Shown in pieces: positions 4,796-32,688 of a DNA stretch of 64,000 bases. The stretch is taken from IMG/VR virus record IMGVR_UViG_3300033145_000529, positions 1 to 64,000 of that record; one strand, given 5' to 3'. Each line of letters starts with the position of its first letter. Within the stretch, counting starts at the first letter, position 1. This DNA is from a virus. A model generated the notes under the pieces. It did not search any database. It worked only from the letters and a program-made list of their open reading frames with translations, and had not been told where the DNA came from. The position numbers were made by a program, and so were the translations under genes.

Positions 4796-5134
4796 CTAAA
4801 TACTGTTGTAATTGTGCTGAGGTAACTCCCCAATCAAAATTCCATATTTATCTGCTTCACATGAACCCCAATTATATCTGCCACACACTTTGCATAACTC
4901 CTTACATTCTTTTAATGCTAAGAAATAGGGTTGTATCAAATGAAACCGTTCTGGTGTTAATTTAGACATAATGAGGACTTCACATTTCGTTGTGTAACAT
5001 TGAAACTTAACCTCACAGTTATTACAATGTTCATCGCAATAACCATCACCAAGCTCCTCACCACCTAATATGTAACGCACTATTCGCATTACCTCTCCGT
5101 AAAACACTTGAACCTGTTCACGCAAGTTTCGCAC
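4796..5134 (-). CDS. hypothetical protein with CX2CX5C motif
   Basis: CNNCEVKFQCYT. Confidence 0.6.
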   Translation of the reverse strand: MRNLREQVQVFYGEVMRIVRYILGGEELGDGYCDEHCNNCEVKFQCYTTKCEVLIMSKLTPERFHLIQPYFLALKECKELCKVCGRYNWGSCEADKYGILIGELPQHNYNSI

Positions 5135-5403
5135 TCCTCGCCCTGTAAAACACCTTCACAAATCCTCTTAATAGGTTTGTAATAATCCGTGCCCCACTCA
5201 GCAATCAGTTCTCTATTACCACCACCGCTTCCACCTGTTTTGTAGACACGAACAATATCTTTGCCACTTTCATCATCGTGGTAGCACTCAATTTTAGCTC
5301 CTGTACGCCAGCCTCGGATATGACCAGCAATTCCGCTATCCTTACTTCCGCCCCTTGTAGCTTCACCACGATCGCCTTGAATATTCCCATAAAAATGTGA
5401 CAT
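5089..5403 (-). CDS. hypothetical protein with C-terminal CX2CX5C motif
   Basis: Start moved to MSHFYG after GGAGG; ends CETCVNRFKCFTER. Confidence 0.7.
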   Translation of the reverse strand: MSHFYGNIQGDRGEATRGGSKDSGIAGHIRGWRTGAKIECYHDDESGKDIVRVYKTGGSGGGNRELIAEWGTDYYKPIKRICEGVLQGEECETCVNRFKCFTER

Positions 5404-5646
5404 TGTTTTACCTCCCCATAGTACACAACAATCTTTGCAATTCTGGTGACAGTCCATCTATCCACCAACATTCAAGTCTGCCGTATGGTTCAAATCTAAC
5501 ATAAATGACATTGCCAGCAGGGTGTCACTCTTCAATAGTCTTTGCTGTTTTCTGTATTCTTTTCCTCCGCTTTGGCTTCCCTCTCCTCTTCTTTCTCTGC
5601 CTCAGTAATTGCAGTTTTGAACCTTTCTTCGTAATCCATCCTTAAC

Positions 5647-5841
5647 TCAATCAAACTCTCCCCTTGCTACACACTGACGCAGGTGCTTAACTAGCTCTAT
5701 GTGTGCTTTGGTAGGTATTTCGTGACAACCAGTAGCACAAGCACACCTGTCTTTGCAAGCATCGCAATCTGTGTCAAAGGTATTACCTTTAGTAGCACGA
5801 CAGTCCCTTACTTTCTTGGGTAGCAATTCATATCCTTCCAT
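5647..5841 (-). CDS. small protein with variant CX2CX5C motif
   Basis: CDACKDRCACAT; directly downstream of a promoter. Confidence 0.6.
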   Translation of the reverse strand: MEGYELLPKKVRDCRATKGNTFDTDCDACKDRCACATGCHEIPTKAHIELVKHLRQCVARGEFD

Positions 5842-5861
5842 TCTTTCACCTCACTATAACC

Positions 5862-5890
5862 ATTGTATCATAAGCCCCAATTAAAGTCAA
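5862..5890 (-). promoter_or_regulatory. sigma70-type promoter
   Basis: TTGACT-17-TACAAT with GGCTTATG in the spacer. Confidence 0.7.
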
Positions 5891-6229
5891 ACCTTATTTG
5901 TGGCTACACCAATCTCTCTGTGTCCATTATTTCGGGGAATAGCCTGCCTAACTACCCATCACAAATGATATAATCCCCCCTAACATCTTCTTTAATTTTC
6001 GTTTTCATGCAATTTTTTTTCGAGAAATTCAAGTCGCTCTTTATCGTATGGCGACATAGTGATAGCACCTAATTGCTCCACAATGCTAAAGTATTTTTTA
6101 TAGATTATCACCATTTCTAGCAAAATTTCTTCTTTATTCATTACCACTTCCCTTTCCTTAATTGCTTGTTTTCCAACCCAAGAAGTCTAATCAGCTCGTT
6201 GCCCCTTTTAATCTCATCTATTTCTCTTC

Positions 6230-6742
6230 TCATCGCCAGAACCTCTTAGTTACCTTTGGATTTCTGTGAAGCCTTTGAGGGTCTTGTTGATACACTTGGC
6301 TTTCCGTTGCTATCTCATGCTGTGATGTATAGCACTTAAACCTATCTGGACAAGTTCCACAGATACTCGTAACTTCCAAGTTAAGTTTACTTCTTATCTC
6401 TGAGTGTGGCTTTTCTCTGCATTCCTTACAAAGCGGAACTATAAAATTACAGGTATTAACACCCTCAAAAGTTAGACGTTCTATTGTAGTAGGAAAGAGA
6501 TTTGTGCCTTTAACTAACCCACAACAAGCACACAATACTAGACGATTTTTTTCTCTTTCTTTTTTGCGACAAGAGGTACAGATAGGTTTTATTATAATAT
6601 GGTCACCTTCGGTCATTGTATATGGTCTTACTGTGTCATGTGTAAAACCGCAAAAACTACAATAACCTATTTTATGTTTAATAATATGAGGTTTAACTTC
6701 CATGTTCCCACTTATAACCGCCTGCTGTCTTACGCTTGCCAT
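6230..6742 (-). CDS. multi-CxxC protein with CX2CX5C motif
   Basis: Four CxxC pairs plus CGTCPDRFKCYT. Confidence 0.7.
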   Translation of the reverse strand: MASVRQQAVISGNMEVKPHIIKHKIGYCSFCGFTHDTVRPYTMTEGDHIIIKPICTSCRKKEREKNRLVLCACCGLVKGTNLFPTTIERLTFEGVNTCNFIVPLCKECREKPHSEIRSKLNLEVTSICGTCPDRFKCYTSQHEIATESQVYQQDPQRLHRNPKVTKRFWR

Positions 6743-6838
6743 TGCATACCATATAAAGATTATTTATTCTAGTTTGTCTACTTGCTTCCTTTCAAAGCCT
6801 CACTTATGTGTTTCCTATGCTCTCATTAGTCAGATGTT

Positions 6839-7318
6839 TCAACTTTTACACCTTGTGGTAAGGCAACGAAATCTATTATCGCATTTCGCACAGTTTTCGC
6901 TTTCCCCAAGTGGAATAGCCTCAATAGTTATTCTCAAAAATCTTTCAGTATTGTGCTTTAAGATTTCACTTACATCCCTAAATTCATCGTAAGCTATGCG
7001 AGACATGCCAGGATGTTTACTATTAAAATTTGGACAACCTAGATACTGAAAAATCTCACGAATAGTGCCGTGTTCATCACGGTCAACTGCATCACCAACA
7101 TCTTCCGCCAAAAATCCCTCAATTTCAATAGGAAGTGAAGCAACAAGTTGGCTTTCTACGCATAGCTTCTTTATCTTAATTTGCCTTAACTGCTCCCTCT
7201 CCTCAACATAGAGATTTTTAGCAGAACCATCCGAAATTTGCCCCTCAATCGCCTTTATCTCAATTTGCATTTCATTGCGTAGTTTGATAGTTTGCTCTCT
7301 GGTCTTATTCTCTTGCAT
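6839..7318 (-). CDS. coiled-coil protein with C-terminal CX2CX5C motif
   Basis: CAKCDNRFRCLT. Confidence 0.7.
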   Translation of the reverse strand: MQENKTREQTIKLRNEMQIEIKAIEGQISDGSAKNLYVEEREQLRQIKIKKLCVESQLVASLPIEIEGFLAEDVGDAVDRDEHGTIREIFQYLGCPNFNSKHPGMSRIAYDEFRDVSEILKHNTERFLRITIEAIPLGESENCAKCDNRFRCLTTRCKS

Positions 7319-7397
7319 TGATATATCCCTTGCACTCTAAAAATATCTTGGGCGCGACCTCTTTTGAGTATAGGCAATTAGTCGTGTCCTTTATCTT

Positions 7398-7649
7398 TCA
7401 TTTTCCTTCCTCCTTTTCAGGCAACGGACACCAAGATGGCATTATATGAATGTTTCTAATTATCCTTAACCCATGGGTTTTAAGGGGGCTTTTAAGACAC
7501 CTGTTAAGGGAGGTTATTGAATACAATCCTAGTATCTCTGTAGTTTTTGGTTCTAACCGCCAACCACATTCAATACATTTACTGACATCGTAAACTTCCT
7601 TCACATACTCACCATCAATGTGATGGTTTATGCTACAAATCTTAGTCAT
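7398..7649 (-). CDS. small Cys-containing hypothetical protein
   Basis: CIEC and PSWCPL motifs. Confidence 0.6.
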   Translation of the reverse strand: MTKICSINHHIDGEYVKEVYDVSKCIECGWRLEPKTTEILGLYSITSLNRCLKSPLKTHGLRIIRNIHIMPSWCPLPEKEEGK

Positions 7650-7673
7650 TTTCCTCGTTTTGTTGTACCTAAT

Positions 7674-10427
7674 TCAATCATTTTCCATCACAATAATTTT
7701 GCCGAGCTTAGGTGACCATCCCCCAGTATAGTGCTCAGGCGTGACAACCCATATCGTGGGGCATGGTATTGAACGAGGATAAGTACCAGCACCATCCGTA
7801 CAGTATATGATACCATCCACTTTTTGCTTCAATTTGAAGCTCTCACCGTTACCATTCTTATAAACACCCTTTTTCACGAACTTAAACACAGGAGTAAAGT
7901 CAGTTCCACCATAGCCATACCTCTTAATACCTTGACCTGTTGGTGGTTTTCTCTTGTAGTCTTTAACATGAGTAATATCGGCATCGCATTCCACATGAGT
8001 TATACTAACACCTGCGGAGAACATTGCCCCAATTTCCTTCCAGAACATAGCAAATTCTTTATCGTCCACACTACCTGAGCTATCTGTTGCCACCACAAAG
8101 TGTGCTTTCCGCATAACTTTATAGCCTGGGAATACTACAGGGAAGCGTCTGTTCATTCTCTTGCGAGTGCTTACAAAGTGAGAGAACTGGCGAAAACCAT
8201 AGAACCTGCGTAATTCAGATTTCCAAGTTATAGTCTTGTGGGCAAGACACGCATCAACAAGACCTTTCAACCATGCTGGCATATACCCCTGAGACTTCTC
8301 ATTAACCTTATGAACAGCTTTCTTGACCATCTCCTTGATTTTCTCATGTGCCATTTCTTTGTTATCACTATCTGCCGCCCAAGCTTCGTGGTTATCCATA
8401 GGCATTGGTATCATTATTCCATTAACTTCTACACCGCAACCACTACCAGCTCTAGGAGACTCAGTTTTAGACTCAGCTTTCTGTTGACTCTTTCCGCCAG
8501 TGCTATCACCTTCATCTTCTTTTTGTTCGTAGCTCCCATCACCACCACCTTTGCCTTTTTGCTGGTTTTGCCCTTGACCTTCTTGATTGCCAAGACTATT
8601 CTGGTCTTTGGCTTGCCCTTGACCAGAACCTTGCTGTCCAGAGCCTTGCTGTCCTTGTTTACCTTGTCCACCTTGCCCACTTTGTTGACCCTGTTGACCA
8701 GCTTGCCCCTTACCCTTACCAGCCTGCCCCTCCTGACCTTCTCTCATTTGCTCTTTTGCTGCCTTCTCTTGTTGGTTAGTAATTTTACTCCCAATCTCTA
8801 TTACGTATTTTGGAATTTTACTCCATAAAATATCATAATAAACCTCAGAAGCTTTCTCACTTTGAAGGTCAACCTTTTTGTTATCAATCCTAAAATTATG
8901 AATGTCAAGGGGTTCAAAAACATTAACTTTCGGATTAAGTTTCATATTACACATCGGACACCAAGTGGGAAATTGCCCTGATGGTGTTTTCCTCACAAAT
9001 ATATTACACTCTGGACACATTCCACCATATGGCAATCCCTTAATATACTGATTTATGGCAAGGTCAGAATTGTGTGTAATAGCATTAGCTACCAAGAAAG
9101 TATGGTCAGGAGTAGTAATATTATATACTTTGCCAACATAATGTTCCTTCTTTGGTTTTTCTGTTAATAAAGAAGCAACATAATCACCCAAATCAACAAA
9201 ATTTCTTCCCCCGTTTTCGGTATCAATTAAAGTATAATACTTACCATAATCATGAATAGCAAAGTATTTGCCAATTTTAAACCCAAGAAGTTGTAATTGT
9301 AACGCTAAAATTTTGCTTACTGTTTTTACTTGCTTATTAGATTGGCAATAATCTCCTGCTTCATAACCTTCAAAGAAGCTAGAAATAATTTCTTTGTTTA
9401 CATTGTTCATTATAAAGTCAGGGATTTGTTTATTATGTGCTCCTTTACCACACCAACTATTGAAAGCTCTTGCTAAAATTGGAGAACGAGTATCAGCATG
9501 TTTCTTATTGTAATAAACTTTAGTTTTTATTCCACAGTTTCTCTCAACAATATCTGCCCATTTTTCTACTGGGGTAGCATCTTTAAAAGAGAATTCTGGA
9601 GTTCCCTCCCCTGAACCTTCAGCCACATAATATCCCAATGCCCAAGCAGTTTCTTTGTTGATTGGAAATTCTTTTATATGCCAGTTGTGAGCAGACTTGA
9701 TATTTTTAACATATTTTGTCATATCTAATGTAGGGCTATCAAAAGTTCCTTTAATTTTCGGAATAAGAACTGCTAATTTAGAATATTTACCACTTCTTAT
9801 TGTATGAGCTAATTTCCAGTAGGGAGCCGAGAATGTATCATCTCCTCTTGCCCTATTCTTATTCAATCGTTTAACAAGTAATATTGGGTGATTGTAAGTA
9901 GTTTCAATAGGTAACATCCCTCTTGGATTAAAGGAATAAATGTTACCATCATAATCATAATTAGCTATTGCTTTAATTGATTGTAAAACACCTTTGCCAA
10001 ACACAAAATCTCCGCCTTGTAAATCTTTGATAGGTTTATTATCTCCCAATAAGATAGTTTCTGGTTTTAGGCAAGCAATGTTCCACACATAATGATTACG
10101 ATTTTCTATTCGTAAAAGATGCTTATTAAGAATGTGCAAAATTTCATGTTCCAAAACAGCAATCTTTTCCTCTTGGGTTAACCCCCACGAATGTTGAGCA
10201 GGTTTACTCTTGTCGTAATCGCCACTATTATAAAACATATTATTGATAAACAAATGAGGTTGAAGTTCATTGCTTATCATAACGGCAAGCGTTCTAATTA
10301 CTTGACCTGCCCCCACATTAGTTTTATGGTCAACACTATGTCTACGGAATTGTTGGAGTAAATGTCCGTAGAAGTGCTTATGTTGAAGCAAAAGTTCTAT
10401 CACTTCAAGCTCTATAAGTTCCTTCAT
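7674..10427 (-). CDS. HEXXH metallopeptidase-like/VWA protein (DUF2201-type), intein-containing
   Basis: HEILH, WNIA|SDLAINQ after intein removal, Gly/Gln-rich linker, MIDAS DSSGS, GGTDF, TDG; adjacent to MoxR ATPase. Confidence 0.85.
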   Translation of the reverse strand: MKELIELEVIELLLQHKHFYGHLLQQFRRHSVDHKTNVGAGQVIRTLAVMISNELQPHLFINNMFYNSGDYDKSKPAQHSWGLTQEEKIAVLEHEILHILNKHLLRIENRNHYVWNIACLKPETILLGDNKPIKDLQGGDFVFGKGVLQSIKAIANYDYDGNIYSFNPRGMLPIETTYNHPILLVKRLNKNRARGDDTFSAPYWKLAHTIRSGKYSKLAVLIPKIKGTFDSPTLDMTKYVKNIKSAHNWHIKEFPINKETAWALGYYVAEGSGEGTPEFSFKDATPVEKWADIVERNCGIKTKVYYNKKHADTRSPILARAFNSWCGKGAHNKQIPDFIMNNVNKEIISSFFEGYEAGDYCQSNKQVKTVSKILALQLQLLGFKIGKYFAIHDYGKYYTLIDTENGGRNFVDLGDYVASLLTEKPKKEHYVGKVYNITTPDHTFLVANAITHNSDLAINQYIKGLPYGGMCPECNIFVRKTPSGQFPTWCPMCNMKLNPKVNVFEPLDIHNFRIDNKKVDLQSEKASEVYYDILWSKIPKYVIEIGSKITNQQEKAAKEQMREGQEGQAGKGKGQAGQQGQQSGQGGQGKQGQQGSGQQGSGQGQAKDQNSLGNQEGQGQNQQKGKGGGDGSYEQKEDEGDSTGGKSQQKAESKTESPRAGSGCGVEVNGIMIPMPMDNHEAWAADSDNKEMAHEKIKEMVKKAVHKVNEKSQGYMPAWLKGLVDACLAHKTITWKSELRRFYGFRQFSHFVSTRKRMNRRFPVVFPGYKVMRKAHFVVATDSSGSVDDKEFAMFWKEIGAMFSAGVSITHVECDADITHVKDYKRKPPTGQGIKRYGYGGTDFTPVFKFVKKGVYKNGNGESFKLKQKVDGIIYCTDGAGTYPRSIPCPTIWVVTPEHYTGGWSPKLGKIIVMEND
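9069..10073 (-). mobile_element. intein with LAGLIDADG endonuclease domain (335 aa)
   Basis: Starts CLKPET, block B TYNHP, WALGYYVAEG and FFEGYEAGD, ends VYNIT...THN followed by Ser. Confidence 0.9.
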
Positions 10428-10476
10428 ACTGTGCTCCTGTTCAGTTTACTGTTACAACTAATACTCCTACCCATTC

Positions 10477-11652
10477 TTAACCAATATCCCCTCTTGTCTG
10501 TTTCAAGATTGAGAACAAATCATCACGCTTGAGCAGTAGCCTATCGTTTATATCATTATTCAAAGCAAGGTCTTTCAACACTGAGAATGCCAAATCCTCT
10601 GGTAAAAGTATAAAGAAGTTACCGAGATTAGTAAGTTGCTTTTCATTATATTTACTTGACTTACCACTAGCAAGACACTGATTTATTTCATCAAGTGTAA
10701 CTCTGAGCAAGTCAAACCGAACATCCCCTTCACCAGCTTCCACTTGTGCCACAACTCTATCCCTAACTTTAGGGAAATGGTTGAAGATGTCAGCCGCTTT
10801 AATTGGTTTATCAAGGTCAGTTTTTAGAGACTGCGTAAAGGCAATTGCGGCAGTCGGTCCAATTACTGTCTCTGCAACTTCTGCCCAATATTTTCTTGGG
10901 ATAGTATCCCCACTTAGAAGTTTATGTAGAAACTCATAGGAACGTGGAGATGGGGTAATTTCAACAGGTATATCTATCGCATCGTTGCCGAGGAACTTCT
11001 CCTCTGTAGCAATAAAATCAATAATGTCCCCCATTACCCCATAATCACGTGCCCACCTTAACCAATTAGGTGTGGTCAAAGTGAATTTCATATTAACAAA
11101 CCTATCCAGCAAAGCGGGATCAATTTCTTCCACATTGTATTCTTGACCAGTGCCAGCATCGGTTGAGGGTGGATTACAAGCACACACAATCGCACAATCA
11201 TCAGGAATTTTGTGAGTATGTATTCTACGGTCAAGCACAATCTGGAATGCCGCTTGCTGTACATCAAGACGACCACGATTGAACTCATCAAAGAAAATAC
11301 AGCGTTTCTCACCATTTGACGGAAACCATGACGGTGCTAACCAGACCGTTCTACCGATGATAGGAATTTTAGCCTGTTCTTGCTGTTCACACATCGGACA
11401 GTAAGCAGTTTTTACCCCAAAACCATACTTGGTTTGGCACTTCGGACAGTAGTATTCCTGTGCTGGCATACCAATGAGGTCACCAACCTCAAGCTGTCCG
11501 AGTCTAAGGTCAATAACGTCATAATCTAGTGCCTCAAATACTTCTCTGGTAATCATGCTTTTACCAATACCATGACGCCCCCAAAGCATAGCTGTAAGAC
11601 CAACTTCTGAGCAACGCTTTAGGATTAACTGGATAAGCGTAATATTCTCCAT
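10477..11652 (-). CDS. MoxR-like AAA+ ATPase with zinc-ribbon insertion
   Basis: Walker A GRHGIGKS, Walker B FFDEFNR, DPALLDRF, SPRS; CPKC...CPMC insert. Confidence 0.88.
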   Translation of the reverse strand: MENITLIQLILKRCSEVGLTAMLWGRHGIGKSMITREVFEALDYDVIDLRLGQLEVGDLIGMPAQEYYCPKCQTKYGFGVKTAYCPMCEQQEQAKIPIIGRTVWLAPSWFPSNGEKRCIFFDEFNRGRLDVQQAAFQIVLDRRIHTHKIPDDCAIVCACNPPSTDAGTGQEYNVEEIDPALLDRFVNMKFTLTTPNWLRWARDYGVMGDIIDFIATEEKFLGNDAIDIPVEITPSPRSYEFLHKLLSGDTIPRKYWAEVAETVIGPTAAIAFTQSLKTDLDKPIKAADIFNHFPKVRDRVVAQVEAGEGDVRFDLLRVTLDEINQCLASGKSSKYNEKQLTNLGNFFILLPEDLAFSVLKDLALNNDINDRLLLKRDDLFSILKQTRGDIG

Positions 11653-11708: not shown

Positions 11709-11711
11709 CTG

Positions 11712-13236: not shown

Positions 13237-13986
13237 TCAGTTCCCCTTCACTAGTGCCTTTAACACATCCTCAAGATTTTGCTGTGGTTTATCTTGTTCA
13301 GTAGTTACTTGAGCTACCTCACCAGCAAGCTTCTTCGTTGCCAGTACACTCAGAGCGTCAAGATACTTGTCTGAGTAATCGGTATAATTAAATACCCCCG
13401 AATACTTGCTAATAACCTGCGTTATCAGGTCGATCTGTTCATCAGTAACTTGATGTTTTGGCACTTGTGGAGATGGTTTTATCTCGTTGTTCCAGAACAT
13501 AGTAGAAAGCACCAACCCACCATTTGTGGGGTGAATAACACAGAGATTTTCTCGCTGTGATATTGCTACTTTACCGATTGCTACTTTGCCAAGCTTTTTC
13601 AGACCCTCCATAAAAAGGTTGAAAGCACTTTCCGCCCCGACTTCCTGCGGTGAAAGGTAATAACCAGTGTCAAATGTTAGCGAGTTAAGTTCCTTTGCCT
13701 CAACAAATCGGTCAATTTCAATGTTCTTCGTGGTAGATAATGGAAGCGTGGCGAGTTCCTCTTTAGTAAAGGTTACCACATTACCTTTACTCACTTCAAG
13801 ACCCTTGACAATATCGGCATCTGTAATATCCTTGCCGCAAGCTTTGCAGATTTTCTTTCTGCCACCAAGTCCCATATCATCTTTATGGTATTCGTGCAAG
13901 TTACTCTTGGCTCCTCTTGCTACATTGTCTAGTCTAACAGGAATGAGAAACCCCCCACCGATTGAGATAGACATTTTTCTTGCCAT
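13237..13986 (-). CDS. ku: Ku DNA end-binding protein
   Basis: IPVRL, DIVKGLEV, IEIDRFV, YYLSP, GKVAIGKV, LSTMFW, YTDYSDKY: prokaryotic Ku core. Confidence 0.85.
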   Translation of the reverse strand: MARKMSISIGGGFLIPVRLDNVARGAKSNLHEYHKDDMGLGGRKKICKACGKDITDADIVKGLEVSKGNVVTFTKEELATLPLSTTKNIEIDRFVEAKELNSLTFDTGYYLSPQEVGAESAFNLFMEGLKKLGKVAIGKVAISQRENLCVIHPTNGGLVLSTMFWNNEIKPSPQVPKHQVTDEQIDLITQVISKYSGVFNYTDYSDKYLDALSVLATKKLAGEVAQVTTEQDKPQQNLEDVLKALVKGN

Positions 13987-14102
13987 TTTTATCCTCTCCT
14001 TACTATTTGGGTAGAAATTAAGGTATTACGTGGGTTTTTAGTTACAAACTTAGGTAAGGAATTAAACACAGTAAAGCATTGAAACCTATCACCCCACCCT
14101 TT

Positions 14103-14207: not shown

Positions 14208-14861
14208 CTAACTTAGCTTGCATACCAAATACCTTAAATATTTTGTATCAATCTTTTTATTATCTAATGACCTTTTAATCACAGATGTTTTAGCTGTTGC
14301 CCAACTATCGTCTCTTACTGATGCCAAATCTTCCGTGAGTAATTTCCAGATTGTTCCGCCCAATCTACAGTATCCAAATCCGTTTTTAGTTTCATAACTT
14401 AACCCAACTTTACCCATCTTCTCTCTCAGATTTTGAAGCTGTTCCAATTGCTCATCACGCTTTTTTACCACTACTTTTACTACAGCTTCTTCTTTTTTAG
14501 TTTCGGGGCTTTTCCCTATGGGAGGAATATGTTCACCATCATCTACATTACCAGTCCAACAATTGAAAACACATGGACACCCCTCACATACTACTTCATA
14601 GCCAGTATCCATGCTTCCTGACAATCTTGACCGACAATCTTGATGAAGGATAATGTTTGGTTGAGGGCGGTCTGCGTTCCATCCTGCATATCCTCTACTT
14701 AACCCTTTGTTTCTGCCTCTCTTTATCTTAGTTGGAAGCAAGTGGCAATTACTAGCATGACAGTAAGGACAAATCATTTTATCTAATATAAAATGTGTGA
14801 AGGCAAACTTCCTAAACTTATCACGCTCAGATAAGGTAGTAAAGTCTTTGCCACATTTCAA
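14208..14861 (-). CDS. hypothetical protein with CX2CX5C motif
   Basis: CPYC and CEGCPCVFNCWT. Confidence 0.65.
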   Translation of the reverse strand: MKCGKDFTTLSERDKFRKFAFTHFILDKMICPYCHASNCHLLPTKIKRGRNKGLSRGYAGWNADRPQPNIILHQDCRSRLSGSMDTGYEVVCEGCPCVFNCWTGNVDDGEHIPPIGKSPETKKEEAVVKVVVKKRDEQLEQLQNLREKMGKVGLSYETKNGFGYCRLGGTIWKLLTEDLASVRDDSWATAKTSVIKRSLDNKKIDTKYLRYLVCKLS

Positions 14862-15217
14862 GCATCTAAATTTCGTAGCCTTTTCTCCTTTCCCTCTTTC
14901 TCAACATAAATCCCTGTCAAACTCTGGTCTACACCTTTACTTGCAAGATACCATTGGATTATCTCACCGAGAGTAGGTCTTTCCGATGGAAGTGACAATT
15001 TAAGCAAATCATCATTGAAGTTTATACGCAGAGCATCTCCAGTATAGCAACGGAATTTTAGTTTACACTTATCACAAGCTTTGGTACTCTGCCCCAAACA
15101 TCTATTATCTAAAAGTATTTCATACTTATCAAATACAAGAATTATTTCTTTTCCTGGCTTTTCTTTGAGTTCCCTAACCTTAATAGTAATGTTATCGCTA
15201 CTGTCTAATCGTATCAT
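14858..15217 (-). CDS. hypothetical protein with CX2CX5C motif
   Basis: CDKCKLKFRCYT. Confidence 0.7.
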   Translation of the reverse strand: MIRLDSSDNITIKVRELKEKPGKEIILVFDKYEILLDNRCLGQSTKACDKCKLKFRCYTGDALRINFNDDLLKLSLPSERPTLGEIIQWYLASKGVDQSLTGIYVEKEGKEKRLRNLDA

Positions 15218-15453
15218 TGCTCTCTGCCCTCTTTATTCTCTCTCTCTGTCCAACACTTAAATCTAATTATACAATTATCACAGAATATTTGGTCTACTTT
15301 GCCAGCTATACCACTCCAATTACAAGTAAAAAACTTAGAAGTTTCACCGCATCTAGGACACCTATCAAAGTCATGTTCCGCTAGAGCAAACAAATGGTCA
15401 CAATCTGTGCATACAAATGCCGCAGGGTATTGACCATAACCATGCCGTATCAT
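15214..15453 (-). CDS. zinc-ribbon protein with CX2CX5C motif
   Basis: CTDC, CPRC, CDNCIIRFKCWT. Confidence 0.7.
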   Translation of the reverse strand: MIRHGYGQYPAAFVCTDCDHLFALAEHDFDRCPRCGETSKFFTCNWSGIAGKVDQIFCDNCIIRFKCWTERENKEGREQ

Positions 15454-16379
15454 TTTACTGTATCAACCCCATCAATACTCTTATCAAGACGAATACCTTT
15501 AAACTGAGGATGCCGTAGAGAATTAACACTGCCATCTTCATTACGTATTACGCCATTATATTTTACCTTAACTACAATTTTCTGGTCAACATATGTTTCA
15601 TCGCCTTTATGCCCTGTCACCATACCGTTTAATACGGTGAGCAAAGTTTCTTTCATTACCGTCTTAGAACCAAAGCCACCACCAACGTATGATAGTGGAA
15701 TTATTTCACCATCTACTCTATGACCAACTAGAATAGATAATGTTTTTGCCCTTCTAGTTCCAGATTGATAGCCAATAATAACAAAATCACCCTCAGTTTC
15801 AAATTTCCGCTTTGTCCATTCGTATGTTATGCCATTGATATACTTTGACTCTGGAGTTTTGGCAATAATTCCTTCGTATCCCCCATCAATTACTATCTGA
15901 TATAAGTCGTCTAGTTCTTGTTGGTCGGCAACAATAACACTAGGAATAAGCACAGCATTTGGAGTGTAGAATTTCAATTGCTCTAAGAAGTTTCTAGTTG
16001 CTGTATATGTTAGATTATTCCAAAGCTGGCGTCCAGCGTATTCGAGACAACTAAAGAAACCAAGACTACAATTAGGATCAAGTTTGTGCCTTGCAAAGTC
16101 ATAGAAATCTTTACCACCGCCCCAAACAAGTTCAGCTAGGAACACACTGTCATCTGGAATTTTATCCTCAATTTCGTTGAGAACTGGCATCTCCATCCGT
16201 ATCCTACCATGCTCAGGTTTGTTAGCAAGATAGAGTTTACCTTCTTGTTTGATAACATATTGCATCTCGCCGTCAAGTTTGATCTCAACTCGGCAGGGGT
16301 AAGTGAACGACTCCCCCTCTATCTCCATGAAGGGCAATCCATCATAAAGAGGACTATTCTTATCCTGGTATGTTTTCAT
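15450..16379 (-). CDS. ATP-dependent DNA ligase (minimal)
   Basis: EIKLDG, EGIIAK, WTKRK, VGGGF, SLRHPQF..IRLDK; start adjusted to MKTYQ. Confidence 0.88.
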   Translation of the reverse strand: MKTYQDKNSPLYDGLPFMEIEGESFTYPCRVEIKLDGEMQYVIKQEGKLYLANKPEHGRIRMEMPVLNEIEDKIPDDSVFLAELVWGGGKDFYDFARHKLDPNCSLGFFSCLEYAGRQLWNNLTYTATRNFLEQLKFYTPNAVLIPSVIVADQQELDDLYQIVIDGGYEGIIAKTPESKYINGITYEWTKRKFETEGDFVIIGYQSGTRRAKTLSILVGHRVDGEIIPLSYVGGGFGSKTVMKETLLTVLNGMVTGHKGDETYVDQKIVVKVKYNGVIRNEDGSVNSLRHPQFKGIRLDKSIDGVDTVK

Positions 16380-16660
16380 TGAAGTTCCCCCAGTATATTC
16401 GGAAAACATAGCACTTCTATTGCCACTAATCTGAAACTCCCAAAATCACCCTTGAACCAATTCCTACAGTTGCCACTATCCTCATTACCACATTCGCATT
16501 TTGGTGGTAATAACACACTATAAGGATAGAAGCACAACTTTCTGCCGCATTTGTTACACTTAACAGTAACGTAATCTTCGGGTATCAAATCCCTTGCTTT
16601 TAGTATTTTGCGGGCTTTTTGTGCTTTCGTGCTCAACTTCCACAATACTCGTTCCAGCAC
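16376..16660 (-). CDS. zinc-ribbon hypothetical protein
   Basis: CNKC...CECG. Confidence 0.55.
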   Translation of the reverse strand: MLERVLWKLSTKAQKARKILKARDLIPEDYVTVKCNKCGRKLCFYPYSVLLPPKCECGNEDSGNCRNWFKGDFGSFRLVAIEVLCFPNILGELQ

Positions 16661-17846
16661 TACTCTCCACCTGCCTTAAAGTTATATACTGATTTCATAA
16701 AGAACTCAACATCAACTGTCTCCCCGATAGCCTCAACAATTGTGTTCTTATCTTTGTATGCCATCGGTGCTTCATCTATGGTGTTAATTGTTGCGGTAGT
16801 GGTATAGATACCTTCCATTTGACTTTGGAACTCGTCAAGGTCTAGCTGTCTCTTGGCTTGACTTCTGGACAGTAATCTCCCTGCCCCATGCGGTGCAGAG
16901 CAGTTCCATTTATTACTGCCCTTACCAATACCTATCATAACTCCATCACGCATATTAAAGGGAATTACTAATCGTTCCCCATCGTGTGCCGAGACCGCAC
17001 CTTTGCGAATTATCTTGTCCTCAAAGTTTATGTAATTGTGAATTGTGTGGATACCACCTTCTGCCTTTACAAAAGGTGAAATAGCAGGGGAGATTTTTTC
17101 CTTGAAGAAGCTATACATTAAAAGCCCTGCCATTACATTTCTATTCAGGCTGGCATATTCTTGAGCAATCTTCATGTCTGCCAGATACTCCTCACCACCC
17201 ATATCCATAGGTAGATACTCTAAACCTTTGTAAGCATCTGCCCCATAAACATTCTCTTGAGTAGTTCTTTAGCTTTGTTTTGGTGGAAGTTAGCAACTCG
17301 TAACCCGAAATTCCTGCTACCAGAATGGATTAAGAGCCAATATTGACCATTATCATCTTGGTCAACCTCAATGAAGTGATTTCCACCACCGAGAGTGCCG
17401 ATTGAACCTATGACCTTGCTTTCCTCTTGATTTAAGTCCTGAGCAAGTGCCACAACCTTCTTACGGAATTTGCTGTCAAACACAAGATGTGGTTTTACAC
17501 CATTTGCCATTCTCTCACCGATACTTCTTATGTTAAAGCCACTTGGAATGTGTGTCTTTATAAAATGGTCTAGGTGTTCAAAATCAATGGTTGTTACCTC
17601 AAGAGGATAAGCATTTACGCCACAACCAATATCTACACCCACCACATTCGGTATGATGTAGTCATTCATCTTCATAGTGAAACCGATACAACTTCCAGCA
17701 CCAGCATGAGCATCTGCCATGATTGCTATGTGTGTCTTAGCAAACGCAGGATGATTGAGAAACGAGTAAATCTGGCTAATGGTTATCTCGTCAAGCTCAT
17801 CAATCATTACATTGGCTGAATTGTACTTACCTTTATATGTAATCAA
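16660..17846 (-). pseudogene. rtcB: RtcB RNA ligase split by a single-base frameshift
   Basis: DAH, GVDIGCG, GGGNHFIE, HSGSR in 17220..17846; HNY, RKGA, SAPHGAGR, DEAPMAYK in 16660..17208; adding 1 nt near the run at 17241-17244 fuses them. Confidence 0.85.
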
Positions 17847-18121
17847 TCTATCACCTCAAGATAATCCTTGCCATATTTACGATATGTTCGGAACTTTGCC
17901 TTCTTGAGCAGTTTTAATATTTGTTCTGGTTTTATAAGACAATAAAGAGATAATTTAAGCTCACCATCAACCCACGCTGCCATATTGTTATAGCTAGTCC
18001 AGCAACCACCAATATTCTCACCAACCACTATTGGGCATATCAACTGTTTAGATGTAAAGCAATTAAATCGCTTTTCGCAGGTATCACAGTTGTTTCCCTC
18101 TAATGGTTTAGGTGCTTTCAT
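17843..18121 (-). CDS. hypothetical protein with N-terminal CX2CX5C motif
   Basis: CDTCEKRFNCFT. Confidence 0.7.
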   Translation of the reverse strand: MKAPKPLEGNNCDTCEKRFNCFTSKQLICPIVVGENIGGCWTSYNNMAAWVDGELKLSLYCLIKPEQILKLLKKAKFRTYRKYGKDYLEVID

Positions 18122-18361: not shown

Positions 18362-18697
18362 TTATGGGGTATCAAACCATTTTTCCCTGTCAGCCTTCCT
18401 GTTCCTAATTTCTTGGCAAGAAGGACAAATGCTTTCTATACTCTCCAAGTGCATTTCTGATTGAATATCAGTATAAATCTCAACCAAATTACCCTCAACC
18501 TTTTCCTCATATGGCTTGCCACAATCCAAACAAGTGAGCTTAAATATCCTTCTTACCCCAAACTCCTCTAATACAGCATTATGAATATTCAGCTTGATAC
18601 CCCCTGGCAGGTCAATATATTTTACTTTGTATTCCTGTTCCGCTAGTTCGTCTTCTCGCTGTTCAATCTGTTCTCTCGTTGCCTTCATTAGCCTCAC
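18362..18697 (-). CDS. zinc-ribbon hypothetical protein
   Basis: CLDC...CPSC. Confidence 0.6.
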   Translation of the reverse strand: MRLMKATREQIEQREDELAEQEYKVKYIDLPGGIKLNIHNAVLEEFGVRRIFKLTCLDCGKPYEEKVEGNLVEIYTDIQSEMHLESIESICPSCQEIRNRKADREKWFDTP

Positions 18698-26398: not shown

Positions 26399-26406
26399 AT
26401 CTTACC

Positions 26407-27257: not shown

Positions 27258-27289
27258 TTCTAGCTCCTTCCCATATTCTCACTACCTAT

Positions 27290-27854: not shown

Positions 27855-27883
27855 TTGACAAATTTTTGGCATTATGTTATGAT
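27855..27883 (+). promoter_or_regulatory. sigma70-type promoter
   Basis: TTGACA-17-TATGAT with TG extension. Confidence 0.75.
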
Positions 27884-27892
27884 CTCAATAGA

Positions 27893-28213
27893 ATGAATAA
27901 GGTAAATAACAACAACACTCCGAGTGAAGTCTATATACTCCACTTTGATAAGCCTTACTGGAATAGGGCTCGTCATTATGTAGGATATACCACCATAGGG
28001 GCTGATAATAGAATTAAGAAGCACCGAAATGGTACTGGCTCACTTCTTGTCAATTACGCTCATAATAAGAAGGGCATAGAATTTCAAACAGGGCTTATTG
28101 AACAATTTGCTACTAGACCATTAGCACGATGGCGTGAAAGACAGCTAAAACGGGAGGGGCATCTCAGTCGTCATTGTGAGATATGTCAGAGAAGGCGAAA
28201 GGATAATGGCTAA
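27893..28213 (+). CDS. GIY-YIG-like nuclease
   Basis: VYILHF...HYVGYT...RIKKH...E..LK. Confidence 0.7.
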   Translation: MNKVNNNNTPSEVYILHFDKPYWNRARHYVGYTTIGADNRIKKHRNGTGSLLVNYAHNKKGIEFQTGLIEQFATRPLARWRERQLKREGHLSRHCEICQRRRKDNG

Positions 28214-28750
28214 ACAAACACGCTTCACTAAATCAAGAGCGTTTCTACGGCAATGTAGGGTCGCTAATCGTAAAAGAATTAAAGCCTTAATTAACTAAAG
28301 AAAGGAGACTGATGGAATTTGTGTATGAGATGAGCCAAGACAAAGTGACCAAAGGGGCTATTAGGTATGCTGATAATGCGGGGCACAGCATCTACCTCCG
28401 TAAAGAGGAAGCGGCTAAGCTTGGTAATCCTCAATCGGTTGAAGTTACAATAGCACCGAAGTAAGCCATAAGGGAGACTTGCTATCGGTGACTGTAATCT
28501 AATGAAAGGAGTTGGCTATGAATAATGTGGATGGAGCTTGTGCTTGCTGTGGCAACAGTACCCCATATACGGGAAGGCTTCCTATTATCTGTCCAACATG
28601 TCGTGAGGCACGGAAGCAGATGGTAACTGGTGGCAATATGGCACACTTGGTTTCTGGTGGTAATTTCAATATACGGCTTCTACTTCCAGATAGTGAGTTG
28701 ATGCCGAAGCCAAAAACGGCAGCAGATTTTCGGTAAGTAGCCGAAACAAG

Positions 28751-28781
28751 GGGTGAAGTGTTAAGATGGCATTTCACCCCT
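28751..28781 (+). terminator. hairpin, putative terminator
   Basis: GGGTGAAGTGTT/GGCATTTCACCC stem after ORF 28512..28736. Confidence 0.45.
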
Positions 28782-28967
28782 GTTCTAGTCTTGGCATTTT
28801 TGCCACCATAGAAAACCACATATTTTTAATTTTGGCAACGTCACGGCAATTTGGGCATTTTTGCCGTGTGTAAAATAATGGCATTTTTGCCATTTATTTT
28901 AGGGCTTGGCTTTTATTTATAGTTTGTGTTAGAAGAGCATTTAATGGAAGTATGCCCACGAAATAAC

Positions 28968-28996
28968 TTGACAAACCACTTGGCATGTGCTAAGAT
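28968..28996 (+). promoter_or_regulatory. sigma70-type promoter
   Basis: TTGACA-17-TAAGAT, GGCATGTG spacer. Confidence 0.75.
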
Positions 28997-29036
28997 CAAG
29001 ACAGTGGAATAATAATAGAGAAAGGACAGATGAGCC

Positions 29037-29258
29037 ATGAGTAAACGGAAAGACCGAGAACGGGCAAAGTCTGGTAGTGTTTGGAGAGATGGTGGACTAG
29101 TCTCCAAAGAAGAGTATTACGCTAGCCACCCGACTCGTGAGATGCGGGCGGAACAGGAAGCTAAGGAAAAAGCTGAAATTTGGGCATCACGTAAACCTGT
29201 ACCTGATGAACTTGACCCAAAGGACACTGATGCTGTTATGGCTGAACGTAATCGCTAA
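29037..29258 (+). CDS. hypothetical protein
   Basis: Downstream of promoter and AAGGA RBS. Confidence 0.6.
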   Translation: MSKRKDRERAKSGSVWRDGGLVSKEEYYASHPTREMRAEQEAKEKAEIWASRKPVPDELDPKDTDAVMAERNR

Positions 29259-29390
29259 CTGCACAGTCTGTCATAAGCATCATATCAGGACATCAAAGGT
29301 TGGCAGAGAACACACTAATTTTTACTTAGAGGAGGCATAATATAATAAGGTAACGCTCCGCTTTCTCTGTGCCTTGTTCAGGTTAGTGGC

Positions 29391-29444
29391 TGCTGTTCAG
29401 CCTTGTGGCAAATGGCAAAGTTTTGCTGTTCAGCCTTGTGGCAA
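29391..29444. repeat. 21-bp direct repeat TGCTGTTCAGCCTTGTGGCAA x2
   Basis: Copies at 29391-29411 and 29424-29444. Confidence 0.85.
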
Positions 29445-29551
29445 TTTTGCCACTTTACATAACTAGCTTTATTACCAGTGGACGTTTGCAAGGGTATAGT
29501 ATAGGACTAAAGTATTTTATTAAAATAATGTAAAATAAACGCTACCAGACG

Positions 29552-29580
29552 TTGACAAAGCTGAAATAATCCTTTAAGAT
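29552..29580 (+). promoter_or_regulatory. sigma70-type promoter
   Basis: TTGACA-17-TAAGAT. Confidence 0.6.
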
Positions 29581-29770
29581 CTAGGTAGATGATAAAAGAA
29601 TAAGCTACAGTGTAAAGCATAAAGAAGCACTACAAAGCTATTAGCGGAAACGCTAAATTCAGTTTGCTATACTGATATTAAGCTAGTAAATCACTACTAG
29701 GTGAAAGCAATACAATGTAATAGGATAATACCGCTATAAGCGGTATAAAATAAAATTGTGAGGTTATACA

Positions 29771-30385
29771 GTGGTAGACAATAACACTAAAACTGGTATA
29801 TCACCTAGTACGCTAGGACGTGAGCGTAAACGCTATAGTGAGATGTCCGAACTTGATGGTGTGACCAAAAAGCAAGTAGACGCTCAAATGCGACTTGACG
29901 CTAAACGCTACGCTAAAAAACTAAATAAGGATATTAGTTTTGAGGACTATAAAACTGATATTGAGACACTACCACAGCGAAGCGGTACTGGTAAGCGTGA
30001 GGCGGACAAGGTAACAAGGGATGCATTGATTGTGGAAACTCAAGAAGTTAATGCGGTCAATAACCTAGCTATCCTATCACACAGGGGCGAGGTTGAACTG
30101 GTTGACGCTCAAAAGGTTGAAGCGTTTGACGCTATGGGAGAAAAAGCTGATGTTTTAGCATCCCACTTGCATACAGCTTTTGATGGTGTGAAAGCGTTAA
30201 CTATGATACACGCTCCAGATAACCTATTGTGTGTCCATATAGCAGGATGGGAAGACGGAAGTAAAAATCTACGCTTCCAATATGCACCCCGTAAAATACC
30301 TATCACTAAACGCTCAGGGTATAGGGATGATAGCTTTAATGCACCTATCTATCAATTACCGATTGCTACAAAGGATAAAAAGTGA
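29771..30385 (+). CDS. hypothetical protein
   Basis: 204 aa, GAGG RBS. Confidence 0.65.
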   Translation: MVDNNTKTGISPSTLGRERKRYSEMSELDGVTKKQVDAQMRLDAKRYAKKLNKDISFEDYKTDIETLPQRSGTGKREADKVTRDALIVETQEVNAVNNLAILSHRGEVELVDAQKVEAFDAMGEKADVLASHLHTAFDGVKALTMIHAPDNLLCVHIAGWEDGSKNLRFQYAPRKIPITKRSGYRDDSFNAPIYQLPIATKDKK

Positions 30386-30974
30386 TAATAGCATTGTGGG
30401 TAATACTAGGAGTGCTTAGTGGTGCAGTTATTAAGTTATTCTGTATCCTATACAATCGGTAGACTACACTGATAGTCTGCTAGTCTTAACAGTATAAAAT
30501 AAGACTAGCACCATTAAATCAAGTGAGGTAATATAATGTTACTAACAGCTATTGAGTATACTGCACTATTGTGTGATTTATTGCTTGGTAAAAATACTTA
30601 TTACCTTAATGAGAAGGTATTATACCAAAACGCAAACTTAAAAGAACTATACGAAGAGAGGGTAAATTGATATGATAGATATAGCACTAACAGGATTATT
30701 CCTGTCATCATTGGCAGGGATTATTGCGGCTGGTATATGTATCAGCATTTTAGTTATTCTACATAGTCAAACAAGGTAAGCAGGCAGGGGTTGACACAGC
30801 GTTAACCCCTACCCCCCCCCCTACTTTACATAAAAACACGCCCTTTCAGCATACTTCGCTAGAGTGTGTTGGATCTATTAGATTGGGCAAAATTTCAAAT
30901 TTGCCTGTTCAAAAATGTCGGGTTTATCTTTCATAACATTGTGCTAATTTCATTGAATTTGACCATGAAAAGGC

Positions 30975-31003
30975 TTGACAACTCCGTGTTCATGTGATAT
31001 AAT
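30975..31003 (+). promoter_or_regulatory. sigma70-type promoter
   Basis: TTGACA-17-TATAAT with TG extension. Confidence 0.85.
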
Positions 31004-31021
31004 ATATATAGAGGTAGTTGA

Positions 31022-31210
31022 ATGATTAGGTTAGAGAAACCTCTAAGATTTATATGTGACAAGATTTGTGATAATTGCTTGATTCGGTTCAAGTGTTGGA
31101 CTCAACGTGGAACTAAACAGCTTTCTGTCGAAGAATTCCATAAGATTGCTGAGAAGAGTAAGTGTAATGGTTGCGTGGGGTCTGAGTTTTATCTAGGATG
31201 TGCAAATTGA
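31022..31210 (+). CDS. small protein with CX2CX5C motif
   Basis: CDNCLIRFKCWT; GAGG RBS. Confidence 0.7.
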   Translation: MIRLEKPLRFICDKICDNCLIRFKCWTQRGTKQLSVEEFHKIAEKSKCNGCVGSEFYLGCAN

Positions 31211-31608
31211 AAACTATTTATAGTACTGGAGCATTTGGAGAACCATATCGTATTGAAGTAAGTGATGCCTTATTAATGGAGGTTATAACTGCTCAACGTC
31301 AGCTTAAAATGTTACCTTGGAACGGTGAGATGTTCTTGCCTGTTCCTATTATTCCTCTAAGCATAGATAAAGAGCTTAATGCTGAGATTGTGGTAGGTAA
31401 GACTTCGGTTTCTATTTGTATCGAAGGTCCAGTGGGAAGAGAAATTATGTTAGACGGAATTGATGATTTACTAACTGTCCCAGATATTTACGTGAGTAAA
31501 GACTTTGAACTCACTCTTTCTGAGCACATGTTCAGCTTAACACCACGTGACGTAGATATGATAGCTACTTGGAAGGGTCTTAAACAGAAAAAATTGGAAG
31601 ACATGTAA
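31198..31608 (+). CDS. hypothetical protein
   Basis: 136 aa ORF. Confidence 0.6.
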   Translation: MCKLKTIYSTGAFGEPYRIEVSDALLMEVITAQRQLKMLPWNGEMFLPVPIIPLSIDKELNAEIVVGKTSVSICIEGPVGREIMLDGIDDLLTVPDIYVSKDFELTLSEHMFSLTPRDVDMIATWKGLKQKKLEDM

Positions 31609-31657
31609 AATATTTCGATTTCGTGCGTAGTTTAAACGGTCTAATAAGCATAAATCA

Positions 31658-31675
31658 TTAGTGATCGATCAGGGA
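31658..31675. promoter_or_regulatory. 18-bp motif TTAGTGATCGATCAGGGA, copy 1
   Basis: Identical at 55615..55632; palindromic core TGATCGATCA. Confidence 0.6.
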
Positions 31676-31688
31676 GTAAGTTTGCAAA

Positions 31689-32025
31689 ATGGACTTTTAT
31701 AAATTTCAAGGATACTTTTAAAGAGTATCAACAACGTTTCGGGCTTACTAGATATAAAGTGTATTTTAAGTTTGAACCCTTAGAGAACTCTTTTGCTGAC
31801 CTTACTGTTAACCAAAATGATATGGTAGCAACGGTTACACTAAATAGTCAGTTATCTGAGAAAAGTGAACCTTTTAAAGATGTCAAGAGAAGTGCTAAAC
31901 ATGAAGCTCTACATCTTTTATTGTCAAGACTAGAACACAGGGTACATTCCAAGTATGTAGCAAATGAAGAGATATATGAATCTGTTGAGGAGCTAGTATT
32001 TAAGCTTGAGGAACTAATAATGTAA
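31689..32025 (+). pseudogene. HEXXH zincin-like protein with a 1-nt frameshift
   Basis: MDFYKFQGYF then stop; removing one T from 31716-31719 joins it to ...KHEALHLLL. Confidence 0.55.
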
Positions 32026-32027
32026 TT

Positions 32028-32379
32028 GGGGGTGCGTGGTTTCGACAGGGTAATTACGCTATATATAAGCAGGTAGTCTTTGGTGAAAAGACTTAAACAG
32101 CACCGAAAAAATAACTGACGAAGTTAAATTATTTGTAGTCCTCGAAGAAGGATTACTCTTTCTCGATGAGAGCGTTGAGTCTCCCGTGAAAGACCGTTTC
32201 TCAACAGAACCAGTTGAAGCTCTAGCAACTGTCTAAGAAATTAGAAAGAATTTAGAGTTACGTTCCCTCCACCCTTCTCGGTTCAGTTCAGGAGAACGTA
32301 AGCTTAGGAACTGAGTAAACCTGTAGAAAGTATTTAGTAGGTTATTTTGGACAGGGAGTTCGACCCTCCCTCACCTCCA
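32028..32379 (+). ncRNA. ssrA: tmRNA
   Basis: 5' GGGGGTG..GGTTTCGAC; 3' GGAC-AGGGAG-TTCGACC-CTCCCT-CACCTCC-A; G3-U alanine pair; AAATAACT resume context before a tag ORF at 32117-32236. Confidence 0.92.
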
Positions 32380-32451
32380 CAGTCAGTAGATGACAATAGA
32401 AAATTCTGTCGTTCACCTACAAATATTGACATGATGACGACTATATATATT

Positions 32452-32688
32452 ATGAAAAAATCAAGACAAATAATAATACAAGATGATTGTGAAGAACAGC
32501 ATGAGTCGTTCTGGTGTGACGCTACCAATTGCGATAACTGTATGCTGAGGTTTCAGTGCTTTACCTCTCGTTCTGAAACAATTATAGTAACTTTTCCACT
32601 AGAAGTTATAGATGACAAAATAAAAGAAGTTCACGCACAAAAATGGAGGTTAAGGGATGGGAGCTCTAGACCTAGAGCGAACCGATAA
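32452..32688 (+). CDS. small protein with CX2CX5C motif
   Basis: CDNCMLRFQCFT; start moved out of the tmRNA. Confidence 0.65.
   Translation: MKKSRQIIIQDDCEEQHESFWCDATNCDNCMLRFQCFTSRSETIIVTFPLEVIDDKIKEVHAQKWRLRDGSSRPRANR

Follow-up and report, generated by a model that had tools for sequence, protein, structure and literature searches.

The first 64 kb of the 148,197-bp IMG/VR virus genome IMGVR_UViG_3300033145_000529 (G000; this 64,000-nucleotide stretch is hereafter called the window) encode a series of small proteins that carry a common 12-residue cysteine module with the core C-[DEN]-x-C-x2-[RK]-[FY]-x-C-[WYF]-[TS]. The module is real and clade-specific, and it is a portable element, maintained at the level of the peptide, on proteins that are otherwise unrelated. 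Judged from sequence, we favor with moderate confidence the reading that it belongs to a self-contained, portable tetracysteine site that binds an iron-sulfur (Fe-S) cluster and thereby clasps the small proteins that bear it.

A six-frame scan of the window for C-x2-C-x5-C-x-T yields exactly 11 copies, in the same open reading frames (ORFs) and with the same peptides as those listed by an earlier, model-made reading of the letters (the original prediction). All 11 lie in ORFs on the coding strand of their arm (minus for 4.8-18 kb, plus for 31-33 kb), and their positions within the proteins are N-terminal, internal or C-terminal, on both arms, as had been claimed. Nine of them match C-x2-C-x2-[RK]-[FY]-x-C-x-[TSA], the two variants being CDACKDRCACAT and CEGCPCVFNCWT. 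The carriers, with sizes in amino acids (aa), are:

4796..5134, minus strand: 112-aa ORF with module CNNCEVKFQCYT at 4991-5026 and the fourth Cys 3 residues upstream; the true start is likely the ATG ending at 5089, giving ~97 aa; the product matched no Pfam or PHROG family.
5089..5457, minus strand: phrog_5927-type beta domain with a C-terminal extension, in which Cys-x9 precedes module CETCVNRFKCFT at 5098-5133; the source-called gene within it (5089-5403) encodes 104 aa and starts MSHFYG.
5647..5841, minus strand: 64-aa protein with a divergent module, CDACKDRCACAT, at 5731-5766 (Cys at position 8, Ala at 11).
6230..6742, minus strand: 170-aa Cys-rich protein with module CGTCPDRFKCYT at 6326-6361; a core family with orthologs in the related genomes G002, G004 and G005, and the fourth gene of a conserved MoxR-VWA operon.
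6839..7318, minus strand: 159-aa protein with C-terminal module CAKCDNRFRCLT at 6857-6892; the family has an invariant fourth Cys (LGCP) 54 residues upstream of the module.
14208..14861, minus strand: 217-aa protein whose module at 14553-14588, CEGCPCVFNCWT, is a variant in which position 7 is Val; akin variants (CEGCPQVFNCWT, CEGCPSAFNCLA) recur in relatives.
14858..15217, minus strand: 119-aa protein that has four Cys and no more, one of them 7 residues upstream of module CDKCKLKFRCYT (15041-15076).
15214..15453, minus strand: 79-aa protein with an N-terminal CxxC...CxxC zinc-ribbon-like part and C-terminal module CDNCIIRFKCWT at 15247-15282.
17843..18121, minus strand: 92-aa protein with N-terminal module CDTCEKRFNCFT at 18053-18088 and no upstream Cys; a Cys-Pro 7 residues downstream of the module is kept in the G005 ortholog; a word-indexed homolog search returned solely the query itself.
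31022..31210, plus strand: 62-aa protein with module CDNCLIRFKCWT at 31067-31102 and the fourth Cys 3 residues upstream.
32347..32688, plus strand: protein with module CDNCMLRFQCFT at 32530-32565 and the fourth Cys 4 residues upstream; the start is likely near 32431, giving ~85 aa; the module is retained in the G005 ortholog.

In the whole genome there are 36 loose module copies, and 31 strict copies occur among its 290 called ORFs, whereas 500 residue shuffles yielded 0.002 on average; the concern that the motif might be no commoner than in shuffled ORFs can therefore be set aside. In the same genome the spacing C-x2-C-x5-C is found 39 times, and each other spacing (n=2 to 11) four to seven times. 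A DNA version of the pattern has 25 matches in the genome versus 0 for the reversed pattern, and strict copies number 19-49 in each of five relatives, with 0 in the reversed control. Residue shuffles and reversed controls together rule out a chance origin. The five related genomes are near-complete and of 134-153 kb (TerL identity 70-80% in four, and 71% in G003), with 27-55 carriers among 233-291 ORFs each.

The original prediction took differences at synonymous positions between two copies as a sign of selection on the peptide, and the codons bear this out: Arg7 is written with six codons, Thr12 with four, and both Cys codons are used. Because the codons at these positions are diverse, the constraint is on the peptide and not on a DNA repeat; a DNA-level repeat is excluded by the same diversity. 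Residue conservation was counted over every C-x2-C-x5-C in the five related genomes (n=225), and, since every such spacing was included, the counts are without ascertainment bias:

Position 7, Arg or Lys: 88% observed, 13% background.
Position 8, Phe or Tyr: 89% observed, 9% background.
Position 11, aromatic: 72% observed, 10% background.
Position 12, Thr or Ser: 86% observed, 12% background.

The module keeps its place from ortholog to ortholog, with C, R, F, C, the aromatic and T fixed and the x positions free to change; homolog pairs with the module number 148, versus 7 without.

The claim that the host proteins share nothing else also holds: with the 12 residues masked, an all-versus-all blastp of the 36 carriers gives no pair at E<0.1, and unmasked matches are alignments of 12-30 residues centered on the motif, not the full-length alignments of ordinary paralogs. 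Across the five related genomes the 192 carriers (median sizes 92-117 aa) fall into 144 clusters, of which 117 are singletons, and the module sits anywhere from residue 3 to the last residue of its host. A minimal carrier is the 44-aa ORF at genome position 106346-106480. No carrier in these genomes has two modules; the only two-module protein seen is P0090, a metagenomic ortholog of the 14858-15217 product with a second module, CSSCGGRFICYT, in an N-terminal extension, which resembles a fusion of two carrier genes. The carriers could alternatively descend from one ancient paralog family that diverged until only the metal site remained recognizable, in which case the module would not be portable. 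The small size of most carriers and the tandem arrays in G003 of ~85-aa module genes, which are detectable paralogs, are consistent with this, but we regard it as very improbable given the absence of similarity in masked searches, the spread of module positions, and the independent histories, outside the clade and without the module, of two hosts: the phrog_5927 domain and a family-4 uracil-DNA glycosylase (UDG) whose module tail three of the five genomes lack.

The phrog_5927 host domain of the 5089-5457 protein comprises ~71 residues. Among 65 homologs, 16 (of 98-120 aa) have a C-terminal extension with one Cys and the module, whereas more than 40 (of ~71-90 aa) stop at ...ELIAEF and lack both the extra Cys and the module, so that homologs of the MSHFYG... 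protein do exist elsewhere without the tag, as the original prediction had proposed to ask. The extra Cys occurs in this family only alongside the module, in 16 of 16 extended forms.

The family-4 UDG is encoded at genome position 134711-135442 and keeps all four canonical cluster Cys of solved relatives (e.g., 1L9G); it has an additional tail of ~45 residues that ends in Cys-x11-CKNCKQRFYCFR. This tail occurs only in G000 and G004 (95280-96357). The orthologs in G002 (104320-105122), G003 (52406-53277) and G005 (74971-76868) end before it and are directly followed by a small module gene, which begins right at the UDG stop or a few bases before it; the UDG is thus linked to the module in all five genomes, either as a tail or as an adjoining gene. 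An origin of the tail by fusion or fission is plausible but not proven, and a simple read-through fusion of the neighbors is not shown, because the tail and the small genes after UDG elsewhere have only the module in common. At least two hosts have gained or lost the module, their domains being found without it as well. Other recognizable hosts in the relatives are a ParB-like protein (295 aa in G002), two L7/L12 C-terminal domains (in module proteins of G002-G005; best E=1.5e-11) and a DNA-polymerase-A fragment, the rest being orphans. Module proteins are not more basic than the others (median pI 8.1 vs 7.7, p=0.4), and hence there is no compositional hint of nucleic-acid binding.

For scans of IMG/VR and of prokaryote genomes a narrower DNA pattern was used, with Asp at position 2 and Arg-Phe at positions 7-8. 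IMG/VR contains 44 stretches with this pattern, nearly all in approximately eight contigs of 54-153 kb, and at least 120 stretches come from JGI/ENA metagenomes, many of them multi-copy. Among prokaryotes (185,579 species, one genome each) there are 45 single matches, which equals the chance expectation, and nearly all are in non-coding-looking frames; two short contigs from metagenome-assembled genomes resemble real carriers and are probably mis-binned phage. Within IMG/VR, the narrower pattern is restricted to one phage clade. TerL relatives have 58-91% identity (one fragment at 58%, the rest at 65-91%) with the next step down at 36%, and a module-free sister clade sought through these relatives was not found. 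A megablast of 20 kb against cultured phages gave no match, and the only match of a TerL tblastn was a mangrove-soil phage, at 24% identity.

About one in eight proteins of this phage carries the module, and between one in five and one in nine do so in the relatives. The carriers crowd the non-structural part in all five genomes and avoid a long module-free block; the six-frame scan found no copy in the 33-64 kb part of the window, in which ribonucleotide reductase and terminase genes are located. A more distant 90-kb relative (G007, IMGVR_UViG_3300037067_002514; 33.7% GC, 35-63% protein identity) covers mainly the structural block and has variant modules at its edge (81568-81800) of the form K-F...C-[YW]-I, with Lys7 and a final Ile (CDKCYVKFKCYI, CRQCPVKFICWI); the signature therefore drifts with lineage. 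A second recurrent variant, C-x2-C-Y-F-[IL]-E-[HE]-C-L-G, occurs at genome position 93004-93039 near the C-terminus of a ~250-aa protein and in its orthologs in three relatives; its Cys spacing is the same and its conserved signature is different.

A fourth Cys, which the original prediction had placed a few to ~15 residues upstream of the module, is confirmed and can be quantified across the 192 carriers. At least one further Cys is present in 191 of them and an upstream Cys in 175, with the gap peaking at 3, 4 and 7 residues and lying within 25 residues in 79%. The fourth Cys is usually 2-22 residues upstream, and sometimes far upstream or just downstream. Where a carrier has exactly four Cys (n=51), the extra one is upstream in 48 cases and within 22 residues upstream in 38. 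In the 14858-15217 protein, C40, C48, C51 and C57 are invariant in 24 metagenomic orthologs, and N-terminal modules have a conserved downstream Cys in place of the upstream one.

The module and its fourth Cys would together constitute a four-ligand metal site, predicted to ligate an Fe-S cluster of the [4Fe-4S] type, with Arg/Lys7, Phe8, the aromatic at position 11 and Thr12 packing around the cluster. Such a clasp may fold or stabilize small proteins. In one clade of uncultured 134-153-kb phages, the module has come to sit, once per protein, on small non-structural proteins that evolve fast and belong to ~150 unrelated families, as well as on a few known domains (family-4 UDG, ParB-like, L7/L12 C-terminal domain). 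If the site holds Fe-S, these small proteins would depend on cluster supply by the host and would be sensitive to oxygen or iron. Fe-S is preferred because the characterized C-Xn-C-X2-C-X5-C sites that we found all bind Fe-S.

No Pfam, PHROG or PDB-sequence family covers the module (best PDB match E=2), which is in keeping with the view that it belongs to no described family as far as Pfam, PHROG and PDB profile searches reach; sub-threshold Pfam matches scatter over Whib, NifQ, DDE_Tnp_1_6, and assorted zinc-finger, treble-clef and zinc-ribbon families. Several known Fe-S sites are nevertheless comparable. The cluster loop of EndoIII and MutY reads Cys-X6-Cys-X2-Cys-X5-Cys and is part of the HhH-GPD glycosylase fold; it resembles the phage module in being compact, C-terminal and four-Cys, with the X2 and X5 distances equal, but no HhH-GPD domain was found in the scanned carriers, and just 10 of 175 have a gap of 6. 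A Pro directly behind the second Cys, common in MutY and WhiB-like (Wbl) sites, is present in 28 of 192 carriers (15%). Cas4-type motifs have an aromatic at position 6, not 8. Wbl proteins, which also occur in phages, are small (80-140 aa), as the carriers are, and have the same Cys pattern, found in the 191 of 192 carriers with a fourth Cys (upstream in 175). In Wbl proteins the CXnCX2CX5C ligands bind [4Fe-4S], and residues around the cluster dock on sigma region 4 (PMC7363131). Unlike Wbl, none of the 192 carriers has G[V/I]WGG, PF02467 is matched by only two of 129 segments (best E 0.015, below cut-off), and the phage carriers are unrelated to each other, whereas Wbl is one homologous family.

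The attribution of CX2CX5C to Wbl proteins and SPASM domains as an Fe-S ligand spacing is supported by the literature (PMC7363131, PMC5715301). In SPASM/twitch domains CX2CX5CX3C binds [4Fe-4S] (PMC5715301), and the module shares the CX2CX5C part; however, X3-C after the third Cys occurs in one of 192 carriers, SPASM (PF13186) requires a radical-SAM core, and a SPASM domain was found only in a separate enzyme at genome position 132680-133759 and not in carriers. Nbp35/NUBP1 tightly binds one [4Fe-4S] through an N-terminal CX13CX2CX5C, and, as with the module, a ~24-residue terminal four-Cys segment (Xn, X2, X5) is appended to an independent domain (PMC8007109). An upstream gap of exactly 13 is seen in eight carriers, but no P-loop nucleoside triphosphatase domain was found in the carriers, there is no similarity to Nbp35/NUBP1 beyond Cys, and the phage module differs in its R-F...aromatic-T signature, in an Xn that varies, with peaks at 3, 4 and 7, and in its ~150 unrelated hosts. 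A C-Xn-C-X2-C-X5-C site in Dna2/AddB binds Fe-S (PMC3439918), and in the iron staple of AddB, Dna2 and Cas4, CX2CX5C and a further Cys hold a structural [4Fe-4S] (PMC3439918, PMC3466216). The Cys spacing is shared, as is the distant fourth Cys in a minority of carriers (e.g., the 6839 family); the staple, however, spans a PD-(D/E)XK nuclease, none of which was found in the scanned carriers, and a distance of just 2-22 residues to the fourth Cys is the rule among the carriers. FNR, with Cys20-X2-Cys23-X5-Cys29 and Cys122 around an oxygen-labile [4Fe-4S], has the same three-Cys spacing and provides a precedent for a redox or oxygen switch (PMC4672761), but its fold is that of the CRP family, its fourth ligand lies far off, and its sequence does not resemble the module. 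RseC has C-Xn-C-X2-C-X5-C with n=5, described as a conserved motif (PMC11729352), and we take it to bind Fe-S.

The main rival is that the same portable four-Cys module binds structural zinc, as a lineage-specific knuckle with no redox role; we consider this unlikely, while taking it seriously. Small phage proteins commonly have Cys4 zinc sites, one carrier also has a CxxC...CxxC ribbon, and treble-clef and zinc-ribbon families are among the weak Pfam matches. Loading of zinc needs no machinery, which fits 30-55 carriers per genome, and no IscU, IscA or NifU homolog was found in the phage. Set against this, the C-P-x-C-G signature of rubredoxin-type knuckles and zinc ribbons is absent (Pro at position 2 in 2 of 192 carriers, Gly at position 5 in 2 of 192), and the third ligand of the module is at X5 and not in a second CxxC as in zinc ribbons. 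Conserved aromatics flanking the ligands are typical of cluster shielding, which also counts against zinc. Finally, no characterized zinc site with C-X2-C-X5-C was found, and the characterized examples bind Fe-S (PMC7363131, PMC3439918, PMC8007109, PMC4672761).

Several observations weigh against the Fe-S reading. The minus-strand gene at 129570-129755 encodes the only carrier to have no more than three Cys (CNKCDKRFRCWA, a 61-aa protein with two His), and any fourth ligand there would have to be something other than Cys. Cys4 sites often take either metal. With no IscU, IscA or NifU homologs found in the phage (one weak IscA match is the 18362-18697 ORF, a CxxC...CxxC protein), the loading of 30-55 small proteins with clusters during one infection would be left wholly to the host, a point in favor of zinc, which is cheaper. 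Among solved Fe-S and zinc proteins, none is matched by the profile of the module. AlphaFold2, run with alignments, gave a predicted local distance difference test (pLDDT) score above 88 for the host domain of the 104-aa protein and ~50 for its module, and for the 14858 protein a mean of 52 with the module at ~50 or less. Conservation of four non-ligand positions at 72-89% across unrelated hosts is beyond the usual need of a simple structural site, and a shared partner may therefore be part of the explanation. AlphaFold2 could not model the site, so that the identity of the metal is inferred; so are metal binding as such, redox gating and a clasp or sensor role. A Foldseek search of the 104-aa protein model against PDB gave nothing at E<=0.001, and an ESM Atlas look-up of the 79-aa carrier returned scores below 0.9, which serve as leads only.

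The strong conservation of positions 7, 8, 11 and 12 (72-89% vs 9-13% background) would also suit a recognition handle or docking tag, metal-loaded or not, which the original prediction had proposed and which would be bound by one common partner, such as a phage MoxR-VWA/HExxH machine, host sigma factor or RNA polymerase, or a host cluster-delivery system. Two genes of the window are relevant here:

10477..11652, minus strand: MoxR-type AAA+ ATPase (AAA_5), the first gene of a MoxR-VWA-module-module block.
7674..10427, minus strand: VWA (DUF2201) protein with an HExxH metallopeptidase-like N-domain, conserved in all five genomes and split by an intein in this one; HExxH is invariant, and there is an inserted CxxC...CxxC.

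The block, in the order MoxR, VWA/HExxH, 6839 family and 6230 family (window 6230-11652, minus strand), is conserved and tightly packed in G000, G002, G004 and G005 (adjoining genes of G002 and G005 touch or share a few bases), with the 6839-family gene directly downstream of VWA also in G002, G004 and G005; in G003 a module copy lies ~60 bp downstream of VWA. MoxR-VWA pairs act in metal-cofactor insertion. For docking in general, Wbl proteins provide a precedent in their binding of sigma region 4 through aromatic residues near the cluster (PMC7363131). A docking tag nonetheless seems improbable to us, since the module occurs at any host position, including buried-looking internal sites followed by beta-strand-like sequence, and conservation beyond the ligands is also a property of tight mini-folds, CCHC knuckles among them. 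In a related and similarly doubtful scheme, the face formed by Arg/Lys7, Phe8, aromatic 11 and Thr12 would be an Fe-S-shaped client tag read by one machine, for which MoxR plus VWA/HExxH is the best candidate and sigma region 4 or a cluster-delivery system the alternative; in that case iron or oxygen status would determine whether a single hub, encoded by the phage, loads, gates or removes 30-55 effectors.

Inteins were encountered in three places. The VWA protein is 917 aa long in the window vs 510-582 aa in relatives, and a module protein at genome position 146192-147625 has 477 aa vs 120-139 aa in its orthologs, with LAGLIDADG and splicing domains; these two G000 inteins are 28% identical to each other. 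The G005 UDG (74971-76476, 501 aa) is also intein-interrupted.

Proximity suggests one further role, as the substrate motif of a phage radical-SAM/SPASM enzyme that would introduce thioether or other Cys cross-links, as when RiPPs (ribosomally made peptides with post-translational modifications) mature. The enzyme at 132680-133759 has the module in two small genes just downstream, 131707-131889 and 132130-132573. We consider this role exceedingly unlikely: a search at E<1e-10 detected no ortholog of the enzyme in G002 and none in G005, although these genomes have 37 and 27 module proteins, respectively, and an invariant fourth Cys is better suited to ligation than to a cross-link. One of the small genes beside the enzyme has a module-free homolog in G005 (78704-79084).

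Returning to the favored Fe-S reading, the kind of site (Cys4, with Fe-S-type spacing) is known, and what is new is a 12-residue signature that is portable and that 10-19% of the proteome carries; no description of the module was found in family libraries or in a limited literature search. If the sites hold Fe-S, iron-sulfur proteins would take up 10-19% of the genes of this clade, and its infection program would be tied to host cluster supply and oxygen. The module would then be a rare natural 12-residue plug-in metal site that works on ~150 unrelated scaffolds, of relevance to protein design and to a gain in stability of small orphan phage proteins. The motif is also a clean sequence marker for the uncultured clade, and it picks out small proteins, several of which have exactly four Cys.

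Two further motif-like sequences lie in the window:

1024..1233, minus strand: possible degenerate relative, CEQCEVNHKCVR, at 1039-1074, outside the range covered by the earlier list; the Cys spacing is identical and the R-F and T signature is missing.
14070..14087, minus strand: half-motif RFQCFT (given earlier as DRFQCFT), in an intergenic frame without a start codon.

The half-motif had been taken for a truncated remnant; the sequence does exist, but, with one such half-motif observed and one in a reversed-genome control, it is not separable from chance.

On the minus strand of the window, two adjacent ORFs, 16660-17208 (208 aa) and 17220-17846 (182 aa), together make up an RtcB-type RNA ligase: RtcB family models align with the first over their N-terminal half and with the second over their C-terminal half. 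Genes for Ku (13237-13986), an ATP-dependent DNA ligase (15450-16409) and a further RNA ligase (3860-4768) are nearby.

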